Shown: in pieces, positions 31,890 to 46,656 of the stretch
How positions within the stretch are numbered: position 1 is the stretch's first letter
Layout of the letters: every line of letters starts with the position of its first letter
From: Escherichia phage 121Q
Sequence record: NC_025447.1
Direction: 5' to 3' (one strand)
Length of the DNA: 64,000 nucleotides
Made by a program: the position numbers and the translations under genes
The notes under the pieces: model-generated
What the model was told of the DNA's origin: nothing
The model's database searches: none
The model's input: the letters and a program-made list of their open reading frames with translations, nothing else

Positions 31890-32744
31890 ATGAAACTTTA
31901 TCTAATCGTTGACTACAATAAGGATTATGCTGGTAACTTCACCGAAGATTCGGATGGATATTGCACATCGACTAATGTCAATGTACGTAGCAGTAGTGCT
32001 CATGAACATGAATCTTGTAAAAATCTAAAAGATTTTATCGCATACCGAGCATTTGAAAAGAACTTCTGCCGCAGTAGATATTCGAAGTTTGAGTACCCGT
32101 TAATTGATGTTCCTGATGATTTAATGTTCCAGTTAATGCTGACCGGAGTTCAAGATTATGATTACATAGCGTATAATCATATTACTAAGAAAATTTATAT
32201 TGGTACATCATCACATGACACTTCTATGTATGCATCATGCCCAGATGATCGAATGAATGATAGAAAATCATACTATAGTGGGTCAGTTGGTTTAAATGAT
32301 TCATTAAATAAAAATTCATTCTTTGAGTATGTTTATGATTACCATCATGAGAAAAAAGAACGTGAAGATTACTGTATAGCAATTGATAGTACTAATGGTT
32401 ATGAAGACGTGAAAGAAGCACTTATGCCGTACATTATTGAAAAGTACTACAAAGATTTTCAGTACTGTAGTAATTTTCTAATCAGAAATTCTATTATAAT
32501 CGGTCGCCAATCTAGTGCATACTCTCAGTACTATAATGATTCACCAGTAGCATCGGCAAATGAAATGTGTGATATTTTACAAATTCCACGTGAAGATATG
32601 GCATTCATTTTTACATCTTTTATTGAAGATGATGAGTTGTATATTAAAAATAAACACCGTTTCATGCCAAGCAAGATTGAGGTTATTCGAAGTTTTAGTG
32701 TTGATATACTAACAAATTTCACAGAAAAAACCGAATATAACTGA
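31890..32744 (+). CDS. FQxS-core-containing protein (large member)
   Basis: ATG at 31890 downstream of terminator; core PDDLMFQLMLTGV within a 284-aa product. Confidence 0.5.
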   Translation: MKLYLIVDYNKDYAGNFTEDSDGYCTSTNVNVRSSSAHEHESCKNLKDFIAYRAFEKNFCRSRYSKFEYPLIDVPDDLMFQLMLTGVQDYDYIAYNHITKKIYIGTSSHDTSMYASCPDDRMNDRKSYYSGSVGLNDSLNKNSFFEYVYDYHHEKKEREDYCIAIDSTNGYEDVKEALMPYIIEKYYKDFQYCSNFLIRNSIIIGRQSSAYSQYYNDSPVASANEMCDILQIPREDMAFIFTSFIEDDELYIKNKHRFMPSKIEVIRSFSVDILTNFTEKTEYN

Positions 32745-32774
32745 GACAAATGATAAGTTAATGATATAATATAA

Positions 32775-32807
32775 GGTGACAACATAATATGTTAGTCACC
32801 TTTTTTT
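32775..32807 (+). terminator. rho-independent terminator
   Basis: GGTGAC-aacataatatgtta-GTCACC hairpin followed by TTTTTTT. Confidence 0.65.
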
Positions 32808-32809
32808 AA

Positions 32810-33347
32810 TCCTGAAAGGTTCCCATAAGGAAATGATTAAAAGCCTAATCCACTCGAAAATGTAGAGGGTAGATGAGTAGTCCTTTCAGTACGAACAGCA
32901 GATGAAACCCGTTAGATGATGGCATAGTTTGAACCACTCACGGCAATGCGGCTGTATAAAGAACTCCAATAGGATAAAGAGAGTTCCTCGATAGACATAT
33001 AAGGATCGCACCTTACCAATTATCTAAGGGAGATTTCATAAGAAATATGCGGTCGGAATTATACAATATAGTTGCGTCCAAATTTTGTGAAATCAAATAC
33101 AAGTACTGGTCATATGGTATTTGTATTATGTGTCGGGATGTTTAAGACCGACGACCGTTGCTACAAGAACCGCGATAGAGAGAAACAGAGCAACCCGCTT
33201 TCGTCTCGTAAGAGAATTCGTGATATGAACTATGTGAAGGCCACCAGCGTCAAATTTTTTTGTTCTTTCCCCTGCGGGGGGATGAAATATGCTCAAGCAA
33301 ACCCCGTCAATATTAATTAAAAGAAAATAGTACTTGTAGAATTAGAC
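32810..33347. other. ORF-free, hairpin-rich island (candidate structured RNA or control region)
   Basis: No convincing ORF on either strand; locally higher GC by eye; complementary segments CTGAAAGG/CCTTTCAG, GAACTC/GAGTTC, GTCGG/CCGAC, TTGCT/AGCAA, CCCC-tgcg-GGGG. Confidence 0.35.
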
Positions 33348-33422
33348 ATGCGTAGCATGATAATTCTACTGATGTTGATGCAATCAACGTCACGTATATT
33401 CATTGATGTTTCCATAGGAATA

Positions 33423-33968
33423 ATGATGGCATTTATTAGAAAAGAAAAAACTGTTACTTATAAAACTTTGAATTTTGATGATTGCATTAATCAATCACAA
33501 GACGAAGATATCTTTACTGGATATGTGGTTATTAAAGAAAAAGGATGCATTTCTTATATAAAGGAATTACAAAATGGAATTGAAGTGACTTCAGTTAAAT
33601 TACTTCCTACTCAAAAACCAACAATATCAAAAGCCCAGTATGGTAATTATTTTGAAGAAAGATATAGTAATAATTCAATAAGTGTTAAGGCTCATATTAT
33701 TAAAGGAGAACTAGAAGGAGAATATAGAAAATACAACCCACAAGGAAAATGTGTTTGGGTTAAATACTTCAATTCAGGATATGATGTAACATCTGAAATT
33801 ATAGAGTTCTTGGGTTTAAAATGTACCCCTGAGACTATTCATGATTACAAGTTCAATACTGAAGAAGAGTTTAATCTGATGATGCGTTACGGTTCACATT
33901 TTAAATTTTTATATGAATATAACATTGACAGTAGTACTTTTGATAAGATAGTACACAACTGTCTCTAA
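33423..33968 (+). CDS. hypothetical protein
   Basis: ORF 33348-33968; first plausible ATG after RBS-like AGGAA at 33423; start uncertain. Confidence 0.4.
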   Translation: MMAFIRKEKTVTYKTLNFDDCINQSQDEDIFTGYVVIKEKGCISYIKELQNGIEVTSVKLLPTQKPTISKAQYGNYFEERYSNNSISVKAHIIKGELEGEYRKYNPQGKCVWVKYFNSGYDVTSEIIEFLGLKCTPETIHDYKFNTEEEFNLMMRYGSHFKFLYEYNIDSSTFDKIVHNCL

Positions 33969-41800: not shown

Positions 41801-42939
41801 CCCTTTTACAAATATATGAAGATTTAATGCACTTATGTAATACAAACGATGCGTTTTTTTATGTGGATCATAAAAGTCCTGCTGGTGGTACGTATCGTGT
41901 ATTCAGTTATCGTCTAGCATCATACACTGATTTCATGCAACCAAATGCGTTGGAAACCCGTGGCTCTATGTGGGAAATTGATGAAGAAGGTGACATGATA
42001 CGTTGTGCAGCACGTACAATGAAAAAGTTCTTCAATGCTTACGAGAATCCTGCTACAATGTTCCCTGCTAACACCACATGCGATGACATTGCGGTAGTTA
42101 TGCCTAAGTTGGATGGTTCGATCATCAGTACTTATCGTGATAATGATGGTGAGATTCGTTGTAAATCACATACTGCATTGTATTCTGACCATGCGATTAA
42201 CAGTACTCGACTTATTAACGAGAACCAGAATTTGTATCAGTACATCGACGAAGCGGAACGTTTAGGTTACACAGTTAATATGGAGTATACAAGCCCAGAG
42301 TACCGAATTGTATTACCATATCAGGTAGAACAACTGTTTGTACTGAACGTTCGACATCGTGTGAGTGGTGAGTTGCTATGTGGTAAAGCACTACGTGATA
42401 AGTTTCCATGCCTTGCACAGTACAGTACTAATATGACCGGAAAAGATATTCATCACACTTTTCCGGTACGAAATACCTTCCGTGAAAGCGTGGAGGAAGT
42501 TCATAAAATGCTTGATATTGAGGGTTTTGTGTGCATCCTAAATAATGGGACAATGTGTAAAATAAAGACTGACTGGTACAGTTCATTACATCTTACAAAA
42601 GATAGTATTATTATTGATTCTCATTTATATGAAGCCGTATTAAATGGTTCAAGTGATGATTTAAAACAATTGTTCAGTACTGATGAATATGCTATGCAAA
42701 AGATATTAAGAATGGAACAATTGGTATTTTCGTGCTATAATGCATTACAAGATGAAGTAGAAAGCTTCGTCAAGGAACACAAGCACTTGGAGCGAAAGGA
42801 ATTCGCAATGAAGGTTCAGGAGTGTTTAACTAATGAACTGAATCGTCAGGGCTTGGCCTTTGCAATGTATAACAATAAGAAAGTTGATTACAAAGAGACT
42901 CTTATAAAATACATGAAAATTGTACTAAAGGATTTTTAG
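41797..42939 (+). CDS. rnlA: RNA ligase 1 (T4 Rnl1-type tRNA repair ligase)
   Basis: N-terminal FFY.D....GGTYRVFSY..ASY, ALE.RG, KFFN..ENP and nucleotidyltransferase KxDGS motif (PKLDGS), all as in T4 Rnl1. Confidence 0.85.
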   Translation: MTLLQIYEDLMHLCNTNDAFFYVDHKSPAGGTYRVFSYRLASYTDFMQPNALETRGSMWEIDEEGDMIRCAARTMKKFFNAYENPATMFPANTTCDDIAVVMPKLDGSIISTYRDNDGEIRCKSHTALYSDHAINSTRLINENQNLYQYIDEAERLGYTVNMEYTSPEYRIVLPYQVEQLFVLNVRHRVSGELLCGKALRDKFPCLAQYSTNMTGKDIHHTFPVRNTFRESVEEVHKMLDIEGFVCILNNGTMCKIKTDWYSSLHLTKDSIIIDSHLYEAVLNGSSDDLKQLFSTDEYAMQKILRMEQLVFSCYNALQDEVESFVKEHKHLERKEFAMKVQECLTNELNRQGLAFAMYNNKKVDYKETLIKYMKIVLKDF

Positions 42940-46293: not shown

Positions 46294-46599
46294 ATGGATA
46301 TACAAACATTCAATAAGCTAAAGTACTATGATAATGGTTTTGCATTAATAATTAACGAACTTGATGGGATACCATACGAATATCATAATCAATTAATGAA
46401 GATAGTAAAATGTATATGTGAAGAATTAAAAAGTATGTTTAAAAATGAATATGTTTATGATTTAGGTAATAGTAGCAAAAAACTATACATAAAAAAATTC
46501 TGGGGAACGCATTGTGGTTTAATGGTCGATTTAGGTTTAAGTTTAGACGATAATTCTGAATCATGTTCATTATATATAGATGAAATGCGAATATCATGA
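46294..46599 (+). CDS. hypothetical small protein
   Basis: 101 aa ORF starting immediately after upstream stop. Confidence 0.45.
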   Translation: MDIQTFNKLKYYDNGFALIINELDGIPYEYHNQLMKIVKCICEELKSMFKNEYVYDLGNSSKKLYIKKFWGTHCGLMVDLGLSLDDNSESCSLYIDEMRIS

Positions 46600-46656
46600 G
46601 ACGTATCAGAATTCGGTGATATAATTTGATTACATCACCAATGTGGAGAAGTTGAA

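Follow-up and report, generated by a model that had tools for sequence, protein, structure and literature searches.

Covariation and copy distribution indicate a large structured non-coding RNA family in jumbo phages and bacterial islands

The segment from 32742 to 33392 of the stretch analysed here (64,000 nucleotides of Escherichia phage 121Q, sequence record NC_025447.1; hereafter the window) is very probably a stand-alone gene encoding a large, structured non-coding RNA, read from the + strand under its own sigma-70-type promoter. It is one of four paralogs in phAPEC6 (Asteriusvirus) and represents a hitherto undescribed family; we found no prior description of the RNA in the literature. 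The original prediction of a structured non-coding RNA at this place now has strong support, as 69 phage records contain the element, it is present in four to five copies per genome, it has a promoter, its base pairs covary and include pseudoknots, and there is no coding signal. The RNA has a core of about 500 nt and a 3′ extension of about 80 nt (Table 1), and we infer its expression from the promoters and the covariation.

Boundaries, promoter and coding potential

The non-coding gap was initially placed at 32775–33347. That span is indeed non-coding, but it is too short, because the promoter begins at 32742 and conserved hairpins continue to 33392. As anticipated, the gap holds no convincing ORF (there is no conserved ORF throughout 32745–33422), and its GC content is raised, at 0.40–0.45 between 32800 and 33300 versus 0.27–0.33 in the flanks and about 33% genome-wide.

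The −35-like box of the promoter overlaps the stop codon of the upstream ORF. The extended −10 pattern TGnTAYAMT is found ahead of 69 of 83 distinct RNA copies, with a box TG(A/G)(A/G)AC placed 14 nt ahead of the TG in the RNA-copy promoters; this box may be just a variant of the sigma-70 −35 element. The complete motif, TGRRAC-N14-TGnTATAAT, is present at 16 sites in the phAPEC6 genome, on one strand only, where 0.15 sites are expected. Apart from the RNA copies, the motif lies ahead of ssb, DnaB/primase-helicase, the late sigma factor, the nrd cluster and other genes of this kind, and it is also seen at 42713 and 46597 of the window. The promoter class defined here is common to the RNA and phage replication genes. 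A promoter scanner ranked the true −10 only among generic matches.

Transcription would start at about 32775–32777, and the hairpin that follows, the terminator of the upstream gene, would double as a 5′ stem-loop or attenuator of the RNA. The hairpin was read by eye (GGTGAC...GTCACC followed by seven T residues); a terminator scanner did not flag it. Hairpins of different sequence, also followed by a T-run, are located at the same place in the orthologues upstream of Dam (Munch, GAP32, Kaldavass, CBB and L013–L030), and are absent between the promoter and the RNA body of the other paralogs. At the other end, the GenBank start of the downstream gene at 33348 is probably mis-called, since this position falls inside helix H12 and conserved hairpins reach 33392; the starts of gp395c orthologues (174–177 aa) lie 3′ of these hairpins.

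We saw no sign of a decayed protein-coding gene, which the original prediction had named as a contrary outcome. The sole sizeable ORF of the region (33072–33320) is interrupted by stops in every frame in 40 of 40 homologues, homologue lengths differ by non-multiples of three, and the substitutions follow a compensatory base-pairing pattern. A mini-ORF starting at GGGGGGAUG is likewise ruled out by 1-nt indels between copies, its frame being unconserved. Several GenBank records annotate small hypothetical proteins at RNA copies. These annotations, and the 82-aa ORF in the window, are what speaks for a decayed or unrecognised gene, a reading that we consider refuted for practical purposes.

The Rfam and group I intron scan proposed alongside the prediction was negative, from which we conclude that this is not a known RNA family. 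There were no matches at gathering score in the full window (4227 families), just chance matches to the terminator hairpin at E≤10 on 32650–33450, and nothing at E≤1 on one island copy (L057:2100–3950). No Rfam 15 family, GOLLD, ROOL, OLE, HEARO, raiA, 6S, RNase P and group I/II introns included, gave a gathering-score match, and ARAGORN reported no tRNA or tmRNA genes in the window. Likenesses seen by eye to the RNase P CR-V motif (ACAG..ACCCG.CUU), to group I P/Q/R/S elements, to the 16S 3′ end (GGAUC.CACCUUA), to a CsrA-type GGA sponge, and to an SD-like UAAGGGAG with a start codon were each set aside, being without covariation or model support.

Covariation and architecture of the fold

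Homologues were collected with nhmmer profiles, and the structure was scored on 41 sequences with 87 base pairs in 19 helices, including the pseudoknots. The structure is 92.7% paired, compared with 37–44% for slid partners; compensatory cells number 603 versus 69–118, and none of 500 shuffles matched the observed structure. Double (compensatory) changes are present in 66 of the 87 pairs, and RNAalifold finds 37 of 69 pairs compensatory. Eight island copies outside the structure derivation keep 85–88% of the pairs and all 14 pseudoknot pairs, with 16–25 compensatory differences from the window copy. The secondary structure is thus conserved in related phages, and the five complementary pairs that had been picked out from the letters correspond to real helices: CTGAAAGG/CCTTTCAG is P1, GAACTC/GAGTTC is P3, GTCGG/CCGAC is P6, TTGCT/AGCAA is P7 (as GTTGC/GCAAC), and CCCC-tgcg-GGGG is P11. 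P1, P3, P6 and P7 covary; P11 shows only G-C to G-U changes.

Table 1. Features of the RNA element and its surroundings in the window.
Feature	Position	Strand	Basis
Promoter: −35-like box TGAGAC (32742–47) and extended −10 TGATATAAT (32762–70)	32742–32770	+	conserved across copies
Upstream-gene terminator hairpin, GGUGACAACAU-AAU-AUGUUAGUCACC, then U7	32775–32807	+	read from sequence
Domain 1: P1 32812–19/32882–89; P1a 32820–23/32829–32	32812–32892	+	P1 7/8 and P1a 4/4 pairs compensatory
Domain 1, P1b, conserved loop GAAAAUGUA	32845–47/32870–72 and 32850–55/32865–69	+	covariation analysis
Domain 1, T1 (3 bp)	32877–79/32890–92	+	100% paired; middle pair UA:19, AU:13, CG:9
Domain 2: P2 32895–99/32951–55; P2a 32909–12/32940–43; P2b 32920–22/32934–36	32895–32955	+	covariation
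P3 hairpin, GAACUC/GAGUUC	32961–32986	+	compensatory changes in 6/6 pairs
Conserved junction GAUAGACAUAU, P4 hairpin (33000–04/33011–15), single-stranded UAAGGGAG (33025–32)	32990–33032	+	alignment, covariation
Variable peripheral module: hairpin with loop AUACAAUAUAG, then GCGUCCAAAUUUUG	33033–33097	+	alignment
Spurious 82-aa ORF, TTG start, inside the RNA	33072–33320	+	open solely in the window copy
P5 hairpin (33098–106/33117–25)	33098–33125	+	8/9 pairs covary
PK1: P5 loop with core	33110–15/33223–28	+	100% paired; 5/6 pairs covary
P6 hairpin, GUCGG/CCGAC	33132–33152	+	outer pairs covary; inner blurred by indel alignment
Pseudoknotted core, invariant GACCGU first, PK1 3′ strand last	33153–33229	+	covariation
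P7; P8	33157–61/33190–94; 33171–75/33218–22	+	
P9; P10	33178–82/33198–202; 33204–07/33212–15	+	
Conserved single-stranded CCACCAGCGUCAAA, then U7 (33255–61)	33241–33261	+	alignments
P11, CCCC-UGCG-GGGG (33269–72/33277–80), flanks UUC.../...AUGAA; tail AUGAAA...CAAACCCCGUCAA	33266–33310	+	99% paired
AT-rich linker, length (~20–60 nt) and sequence vary between copies	33311–33335	+	
3′ extension: H12 33336–69, apical CAUGCGUAGCAUG; H13 33370–92	33336–33392	+	MFE fold recovers both hairpins
Probable true start of gp395c, in-frame ATG ATG after AGGA (33416–19)	33423–33428	+	sequence; orthologues 174–177 aa

The fold comprises about 20 helices and three pseudoknots, and about 90 of the nucleotides are invariant. 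T1 clamps the 3′ strand of P1, which results in a pseudoknot topology. P2 is paired in every sequence with four of five pairs covarying, and Domain 2 has conserved joiners (GAAACCCGUUAG and CACGGCAAUGCGGCU) and an apical part that is swapped for a different insert in some paralogs. P4 stays intact in Munch/GAP32-type copies through a paired A/U deletion. The peripheral module is found at its 33033–33097 site, in the loop of P10, or at both, depending on the paralog, and is missing from the former site in some copies. Within the core P7 crosses P8 and P9, each of these three helices being 100% paired in the 41 sequences with three to four covarying pairs, and GAAAC.G and ACCCGC form further invariant blocks. 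The nearly invariant UAAGGGAG belongs with GAAACCCG, GACCGU and ACCCGC to a series of long invariant single-stranded joiners; a covariation scan found no pairing partner for CCACCAGCGUCAAA or for two conserved UCGUCAG motifs. Many other copies have an intrinsic-terminator-like hairpin and U-run inserted in the segment that corresponds to 33241–33261. The core ends with its conserved tail at 33310, and beyond the linker CAUGCGUAGCAUG is the window version of a family loop, GAACGWAGUGA, which caps a hairpin in most phage and island copies even though the stem sequences differ.

Multi-domain folds with a core pseudoknot are also a feature of the group I introns that are common in large phages, including T4-like phages. 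Such introns are recognised by insertion in a host gene, flanking exons, a P3-P7 pseudoknot and the canonical P4-P6/P8 order, and group II introns by the domain V catalytic hairpin, a 5′ GUGYG and often an RT ORF. The phage RNA differs in that it is intergenic rather than inserted in a gene, has its own conserved promoter, gives no match to RF00028, and has the core order P7-5′, P8-5′, P9-5′, P7-3′, P9-3′, P10, P8-3′, such that P7 sits in the loop of P9, with P8 enclosing it. We therefore rejected a group I intron, and also a group II or HYER-like element, for which there is no Rfam group II match and no RT nearby.

Folding of one DNA strand is also compatible with the covariation, and the element could in principle act solely as DNA, either as a terminase pac site or as a single-stranded structure (an ssi or primosome site), with transcription being irrelevant. 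Satellites typically copy the packaging or replication signals of their helpers, which fits the sharing of this element alone between phage and islands. Several observations nevertheless make this reading very unlikely. A conserved promoter upstream and terminators downstream have the orientation of the structured strand; G-U pairs but no A-C pairs occur in the 100%-paired helices (160 G-U versus 92 A-C cells overall); folding is stronger for the + strand (z = −2.64) than for the − strand (z = −1.42); DNA sites seldom have pseudoknotted tertiary folds; and it would be strange for a genome to have four to five pac sites.

Copies in jumbo phages and bacterial islands

The four phAPEC6 paralogs share 70–76% identity, lie on the same strand, at record positions 40.4, 151.0, 229.8 and 285.5 kb, and each have their own promoter. 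Jumbo phages of the RaK2/PBECO4/GAP32 type (PBECO4, GAP32, CBB, Munch, fHe-Yen9, RaK2 and others) have the element four to five times in each genome, in syntenic positions, and across the 69 records, from at least nine host genera, identity is 66–76%. For example, Munch, Kaldavass, GAP32 and RaK2 have a copy upstream of their Dam/cytidyltransferase block, and fHe-Yen9-04 has one downstream of an rpoD-like gene.

Presence in multiple copies and in unrelated mobile elements, together with a ribozyme-like architecture, is what might be seen with a selfish mobile RNA, an ORF-less intron-like element or retro-ribozyme that has spread to intergenic sites and to other mobile elements. We think this highly improbable: the copies are syntenic across genera and 57–80% diverged, which indicates that the duplications are old and do not reflect ongoing mobility, each copy has a promoter of its own rather than flanking exons, and we find no group I/II hallmarks, Rfam match, target-site duplications, or associated RT or endonuclease.

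Because the RNA precedes the gp395c-Dam-cytidyltransferase block in several genera, and the window copy has a terminator-like hairpin between the −10 and the RNA body, it might be supposed that each copy is a cis-regulatory leader (a riboswitch, attenuator or antiterminator) for the genes downstream. This is very unlikely, since the four paralogs have unrelated genes beside them, which do not constitute one downstream family, the c2-type copy, flanked on both sides by opposite-strand genes and ending in a bidirectional terminator, has no co-oriented gene downstream, and a length of 500–600 nt with three pseudoknots far exceeds that of known leaders. In cI-type islands the RNA and a cI-like repressor gene are convergent, which is also at odds with a leader.

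Full-length copies are also present in small integrase-bearing islands of Enterobacterales, one per island. The 10.7 kb island of E. coli LR-29-1 is inserted at ffs, with a 24-bp direct repeat at the ffs 3′ end and again 10.7 kb away, and contains a Tyr integrase and the defence candidate PDC-M45 but no replication or transfer genes. Similar architectures are seen at eight genome loci and ten metagenome loci. The RNA-bearing islands have att repeats and defence cargo, and the stretches examined hold no recognisable genes for replication or transfer; with an integrase, att direct repeats and no autonomous transfer genes they have the makeup of satellites. The RNA accompanies different recombinases (Tyr and large Ser) and is represented by at least two subtypes. 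The RNA unit is the sole similarity between islands and phage at the DNA or protein level; no protein is common to both that might be a candidate RNA partner, and no RNA copies were found in PLSDB plasmids.

Possible modes of action

A jumbo phage specifically transduces islands that have an integrase and defence genes but lack transfer genes, which raises the question of how it recognises them (PMC12595487, PMC12772148); a 2025 commentary describes as "mysterious" how jumbo phages recognise and package non-autonomous islands. The I55-type islands (phage JPTI55) resemble those described here in being small and integrative, with an integrase, defence cargo, no transfer genes and a link to a jumbo phage, but they have a Pseudomonas host, a PA5oct-like phage of a different jumbo-phage lineage and a tmRNA integration site, and no shared non-coding element is reported (PMC12595487). 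The distribution of the RNA across phages and islands bears on this recognition. As unrelated bacterial islands and the phage share just this element, a cis-acting replication or packaging element, already suggested in the original prediction, is now the leading mechanistic hypothesis.

We tentatively favour, as the single most likely mechanism, that the element is a transcribed origin of replication, acting mainly on its encoding DNA. Transcription by host RNA polymerase would start at a promoter of the class driving the phage replication genes, and the folded transcript would remain bound to its template, forming an R-loop or pre-primer in the way of ColE1 RNA II or T4 ori(uvsY)/ori(34). It would then be used by the T4-type replisome of the phage (gp43-like polymerase, primase-helicase, RNase H and UvsW), and four to five units would serve the 350-kb genome. 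UvsW-like, RNase H, UvsX and gp43-like functions are encoded by the phage. Islands bearing the unit would be amplified upon infection and headful-packaged as concatemers, such that the RNA unit would be a "replicate/package me" tag for jumbo-phage satellites. Possibly the islands copied the RNA so that jumbo phages replicate and carry them. That a structured, possibly catalytic origin RNA, used four to five times per 350-kb genome, was captured at least twice by minimal integrase and defence islands for amplification and transduction as a portable tag is a possibility that we put forward with more reserve.

The dispersed and co-oriented disposition of the four to five copies per genome counts in favour of an origin, and a dedicated promoter reading into the element, as at an R-loop origin, is present at most copies and of a class that also precedes replication genes. 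Against an origin, cumulative GC skew follows gene orientation, with no origin-like inflection at the four loci. The AT-rich linker that follows the core lies in a genome that is itself AT-rich.

Comparison with characterised origins gives likenesses and differences. ColE1 RNA II is likewise structured and about 550 nt long, is transcribed by the host RNA polymerase from a promoter of its own and can act in cis at the origin by virtue of its fold; G-run/C-run elements and the availability of RNase H are further points in common; the phage RNA fold is far more complex and is pseudoknotted, and we identified no partner resembling the antisense RNA I. T4 ori(uvsY) and ori(34) share a T4-type replisome, several origins per genome and a promoter class in common with replication genes, but they are short (a promoter and unwinding element), lie in or beside genes, are mutually non-homologous and have no conserved RNA structure. 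T4 replicates and packages plasmids that bear one of its origins, reportedly as concatemers in the work of Kreuzer and Alberts (1985/86). The phi29 pRNA is another phage-encoded structured RNA for genome handling, and is multimeric, as the paralogs here could in principle be through co-assembly; it differs in being about 170 nt and single-copy and in acting in trans on the portal, and has no similarity to the phage RNA.

Further features count against the origin model. To our knowledge, R-loop origins need nothing near a fold with some 20 helices, three pseudoknots and invariant nucleotides numbering about 90, complexity that is typical of ribozymes or ornate RNAs acting in trans, and the terminator-like hairpins in many copies suggest discrete released RNAs. 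It is quite possible, if short of probable, that the RNA acts in trans as a folded particle, whether as a ribozyme, as the scaffold of an RNP, as a sponge or decoy, or as an ornate RNA that self-assembles in the manner of GOLLD, ROOL or OLE. In that case it would benefit any Enterobacterales mobile element, for example in counter-defence or host takeover, and would have spread as anti-defence genes do. The very elaborate architecture, with peripheral modules shifting between paralogs and long invariant joiners, the delimitation of a discrete RNA by its own promoter and, in several copies, terminators, and the high dosage that multiple gene copies would provide are all consistent with this. There are precedents for large RNAs without a known function in phages and prophages, among them GOLLD and ROOL. 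These two, with OLE, HEARO and raiA, are likewise 500–800 nt with many helices and pseudoknots, and members of this group are found on phages, prophages and mobile elements, are transcribed autonomously (as we predict here) and were discovered by comparative genomics. The phage RNA differs from them in having no sequence or structure match, with the Rfam models silent at E≤10, in not being tRNA-associated, and in its distribution, as four to five diverged paralogs in virulent Enterobacterales jumbo phages and in integrase islands. The related jumbo phage PA5oct expresses abundant lncRNAs, supported by RNA-seq (PMC7318152); nhmmer found no match to our RNA in its first 30 kb, which covers ncRNA001 and ncRNA002. 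Weighing against action in trans, we see no indication of any particular biochemical activity or partner, and no protein accompanies the RNA in both phages and islands. It also leaves unexplained why diverged paralogs are held at fixed, dispersed and co-oriented sites for as long as the genera exist, and why this element alone is carried by minimal islands that lack transfer genes, differ in their recombinases and represent at least two RNA subtypes.

If the family is real, as the covariation says, it is a new class among the few large complex RNAs of bacteria and phages, and has an unusual distribution: virulent jumbo phages each have four to five paralogs of old origin, and small defence islands that are otherwise unrelated to these phages have one copy apiece. 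The hosts (E. coli, Salmonella, Klebsiella and Erwinia) are well studied and genetically tractable. Spurious small ORFs and a probably mis-called start codon can be corrected in dozens of GenBank records. If the RNA is indeed a tag for replication and packaging, it would be the first molecular answer to how jumbo phages recognise their satellites, and no earlier origin would have been defined by the fold of a pseudoknotted RNA.

The RNA unit, its limits and its transcription signals

The window is 100% identical to vB_EcoM_phAPEC6 (phAPEC6; MK817115.1), an Asteriusvirus of 352,598 bp and a RaK2/PBECO4-type jumbo myovirus, with the + strand of the window corresponding to the - strand of that record. 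The segment 32742-33392 is the gene for a large, intricately folded RNA that has its own promoter, is represented by several old jumbo-phage paralogs and has been copied by small islands. The original prediction described 32775-33347 as lacking any convincing ORF and as richer in GC than its surroundings, and both descriptions hold: from the stop codon of the upstream ORF at 32744 to the start of the downstream gene, most plausibly at 33423/33426, the sole sizeable ORF is an 82-aa frame (33072-33320) starting with TTG, and GC is 0.40-0.45 in the gap versus 0.27-0.33 in the flanks. The ORF-free gap is thus real, but the non-coding unit extends somewhat beyond those coordinates, to 32742-33392; we infer the 5' and 3' ends of the RNA. 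The GenBank start of gp395c, the gene directly downstream, falls at 33348 within the conserved hairpin H12, and the in-frame ATGs at 33423/33426, preceded by AGGA at 33416-19, match the 174-177-aa orthologues of Munch and GAP32; the annotated product (206 aa) is probably about 25 aa too long.

A coding gene could point to the 82-aa ORF, already distrusted in the original prediction, and to an apparent RBS-ATG at GGGGGGAUG, right after which there are 1-nt indels between copies. In all 40 other full-length copies the stretch homologous to the ORF is interrupted by one or more stops in every one of the three frames, its length differs between copies by non-multiples of three, and the longest ORFs of individual copies lie in differing places and on differing strands. 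On these grounds we rejected a protein-coding gene, which we regard as very improbable. The phAPEC6 annotation "gp307" (MK817115.1 229513-229770; L006:33513-33770 in our extract of that record) overlies RNA copy 4 on the opposite strand, and three to six "hypothetical proteins" are annotated under the RNA in SHEFM2K, JP4, WPEC3/5, E9.1, SD-x_Sxx phages and others; these are probably spurious ORF calls.

Of 83 distinct copies, 69 are preceded by the motif TGnTAYAMT, and a box TG(A/G)(A/G)AC stands 14 nt before its TG. The phAPEC6 genome has this composite promoter at 16 sites against 0.15 expected, always on the strand that carries the RNA copies; four of the sites belong to RNA copies, and others precede ssb, DnaB/primase-helicase genes, the late sigma factor, the nrd cluster and nudix/glutaredoxin genes. 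It may represent a "middle-like" promoter class of the RaK2/PBECO4-type phage group. Two further sites of the form TG(A/G)(A/G)AC-N14-TGnTATAAT are present on the + strand of the window, at 42713-42741 and 46597-46625.

The phAPEC6 copy at 151 kb has opposite-strand genes on both sides and a bidirectional terminator at the unit end, and the genes beside the four phAPEC6 paralogs are unrelated, so that the units are autonomous and not leaders of a common gene; both observations weigh against a cis-regulatory leader, which has very little probability. In window-type orthologues a hairpin with a U-run lies between the -10 element and the RNA body, and the Dam-upstream transcript would therefore open with a terminator, making attenuation or antitermination control possible. 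In the window this hairpin, followed by T7 (32775-32807), was found by eye; a simple scanner made no call there. Hairpins of this type could be the terminator of the upstream gene, a 5' stem-loop or an attenuator. They are limited to the Dam-upstream paralog (the window and sequences L009-L011, L013, L017, L019, L020, L024 and L030).

A conserved and apparently new RNA structure

RNAalifold predicted 69 pairs from 19 copies, 37 of them with compensatory changes, and the same helices emerged when 40 copies were scanned all-against-all for covariation, together with three additional, crossing interactions. We scored a structure of 19 helices and 87 pairs on an alignment of 41 sequences, RaK2 among them, made with MAFFT; in such MAFFT-based alignments the variable helices P2b and P6 are blurred by indels. 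Standard pairs fill 92.7% of cells, compared with 37-44% after sliding the 3' partners by 1-3 columns; compensatory cells number 603 versus 69-118, the covariation score is 0.48 versus 0.07-0.11, and 66 of the 87 pairs have changed on both sides. No shuffle of 500 reached any structure measure, in a control that ignores phylogeny. That concern is addressed by the slid partners and by an independent set of eight bacterial-island copies, found after the structure was derived, which keep 85-88% of pairs and all 14 pseudoknot pairs with 16-25 compensatory double changes relative to the window copy. Covariation folding across related phages thus bears out the structured non-coding RNA proposed originally, and all five complementary pairs picked out by eye are helices in the final structure.

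For seven helices, pairing is 100% throughout the 41 sequences: T1, P2, P7, P8, P9 and PK1 (the pseudoknot of the P5 loop) with several covarying positions each, and P2a, which is nearly invariant. G-U pairs occur in these perfectly paired helices and A-C does not, the whole structure has 160 G-U cells versus 92 A-C cells, and the fold z-score is -2.64 for the + strand versus -1.42 for the - strand; these lines all point to the + strand as the structured one. We give scant weight to a site that acts as DNA only. Across the family, in phage and island copies alike, H12 carries the loop GAACGWAGUGA on stems unrelated in sequence, and a peripheral module of about 35 nt changes position between paralogs, behaviour typical of large folded RNAs. 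The module (window 33050-33087) consists of a hairpin with GUACAAUAUAG as its loop and, after it, CCGUCCAAAAUUUG; some paralogs have it in the P4-P5 linker and others in the P10 loop, and phAPEC6 copy 4 has it in both places.

Features of the RNA unit and locations of related copies
Feature	Location	Strand	Remarks
Promoter elements of window copy	32742-32770	+	
Domain 1	32812-32892	+	P1, P1a, P1b and clamp helix T1
Domain 2	32895-32955	+	P2, P2a, P2b
P3	32961-86	+	
Conserved junction, P4	32990-33032	+	junction GAUAGACAUAU; invariant UAAGGGAG
Variable module	33033-97	+	
P5	33098-125	+	loop paired with 33223-28
P6	33132-52	+	
Pseudoknotted core	33153-33229	+	P7-P10
Conserved segment and U7	33241-61	+	CCACCAGCGUCAAA
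P11 and conserved tail	33266-33310	+	CGUCAA at end
H12 and H13	33336-92	+	after an AT-rich linker
Other sequences with ~35-nt module	L006, L054, L045, L027, L028, L040, L032, L052		P10 loop
phAPEC6 RNA copies	285.5 kb (= window), 151.0, 40.4, 229.8 kb of record	same strand	
E. coli LR-29-1 island, 10.7 kb	NZ_AP027515.1, L138:9842-20543		bounded by 24-bp direct repeat; ffs (4.5S RNA) 3' end

Rfam returned no family at the gathering score or at E<=10 for the window or for an island copy, group I introns being covered, so that the RNA belongs to no known family there; no tRNA or tmRNA was found. The order of core helices is unlike that of group I introns and domain V of group II introns is absent; a mobile ribozyme is a distant prospect. 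Resemblances to RNase P CR-V and rRNA seen by eye found no support. Full-text literature searches yielded no account of the RNA, and a large screen of viral structured RNAs, whose motifs average 67 nt, does not mention the family. RNA-seq has defined four lncRNAs in PA5oct, a related jumbo phage (PMC7318152), and the region with two of these shows no similarity to the family. The PA5oct lncRNAs (L055; MK797984.1 8263-8498 and 21951-22401) are highly expressed and lie in the terminal repeat (PMC7318152). No relative of the family is detectable among the RNA families described so far, and judged by sequence and structure it is a new class.

Jumbo-phage paralogs and bacterial islands

Blastn of 50,697 phage records found the segment in 69, all jumbo phages of the RaK2/PBECO4-type lineage, including the Asteriusvirus group, Munch/7t3, fENko-Kae01, GAP32, CBB, Serratia BF, pEa_SNUABM phages, fHe-Yen9-03/04, XbC2/XaC1, Kaldavass and, weakly, RaK2/K64-1. 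Identity beyond the genus is 66-76%, with matches at 4-5 separate places per genome; for phAPEC6 the count is exactly four, with every copy on the same strand and pairwise identities of 70-76%. The window-type copy lies upstream of a hypothetical/Dam/cytidyltransferase block in Munch, Kaldavass, GAP32 and RaK2 (where it has diverged; nhmmer E = 5e-46), and another type lies downstream of an rpoD-like sigma gene in phAPEC6 and fHe-Yen9-04; because copies are syntenic across genera, the paralogs are older than the divergence of these genera. With pattern scans of IMG/VR (two), GTDB genomes (one) and metagenomes (one), the collection holds about 100 copies in 53 clusters at 95% identity.

A genome scan gave eight full-length copies in genome assemblies, seven from Enterobacterales (Serratia fonticola, as a complete genome, a second Serratia, Enterobacter chinensis, Silvania, Buttiauxella and further Enterobacteriaceae); the eighth comes from a MAG labelled Clostridium, where it sits on a contig of 2.8 kb, and matches the Enterobacterales copies at 95% identity or more. 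Two of 5,426 complete E. coli genomes carry the RNA, and it is absent from all PLSDB plasmids. In these bacterial genomes the RNA adjoins a recombinase gene, for either a tyrosine integrase or a large serine recombinase, and the genes that usually come after the RNA encode a divergent cI-like S24 repressor, a Cro-like protein (HTH_35), a membrane/coiled-coil protein of 286 aa and an LprI-like protein; ten metagenomic loci share this architecture with either recombinase type. The E. coli LR-29-1 island (RNA copy at nhmmer E = 1.7e-121) carries a tyrosine integrase split by IS3, an invertase and PDC-M45 (DuOB/DUF488/mSLOG-DUF4326), a candidate defence system of PADLOC; neither replication nor transfer genes were found in it. 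The RNA unit is the sole similarity between islands and phage at the DNA and protein levels. Island copies form two or more subtypes that differ in their nearest phage paralog (phAPEC6 copy 4, at 76%, for the E. coli copy; a fifth paralog type of 349-kb metagenomic jumbo phages, at 80%, for the Buttiauxella type), which argues that the element was captured more than once.

Upstream of the RNA promoter in island copies, at a distance of about 40 nt, stands the perfect palindrome CCCTATAAATATC-GGTA-GATATTTATAGGG (island sequences L057:2700-2735, L060, L064 and L059), and ATCGATCG iteron clusters lie downstream of the RNA (L060:7230-7320; L138:15000-15110); both could serve as operators or as cis sites that belong to the islands themselves. 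In Serratia fonticola two tandem rof (Rho-modulator) paralogs adjoin the RNA-bearing element (L062:4775-5490), in which a large serine recombinase and two ParB/RepB-like genes replace the cI/Cro module.

Possible functions of the RNA

The single mechanism covering most of these observations is that the RNA unit serves as a transcribed replication origin of the phage, a reading that we find plausible yet somewhat short of probable. The best-understood origins of T4 are promoter-driven R-loops, plasmids with T4 origins are replicated and packaged by T4 as concatemers, and ColE1 RNA II is a folded pre-primer of about 550 nt. Were the RNA units origins, this would account for the several dispersed, co-oriented units per 350-kb genome, the promoter class common to RNA copies and replication genes, the T4-type replisome with UvsW and RNase H in the phage, and islands lacking transfer genes that have only the RNA unit in common with the phage. 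Islands with integrase and defence genes and without transfer genes were recently shown to be specifically transduced by a jumbo phage, and their recognition has been called mysterious (PMC12595487, PMC12772148). Our hypothesis is that the Enterobacterales islands are mobilised by RaK2/PBECO4-type phages.

Against an origin, we know of no R-loop origin that needs so elaborate, ribozyme-like a fold, GC skew gave no origin signal, and the terminator-like hairpins suggest released RNAs. The main rival is an RNA acting in trans as a particle useful to any mobile element, which we rate as high as the origin, likewise plausible yet somewhat short of probable; that estimate is an aggregate over a ribozyme, an RNP, a decoy and a GOLLD/ROOL-like assembly. 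If the trans-acting explanation is true, the family joins the small set of large ornate RNAs without assigned function. If the units are transcribed origins, they would be origins of a new kind and, for jumbo-phage satellites, the first candidate for a recognition element.
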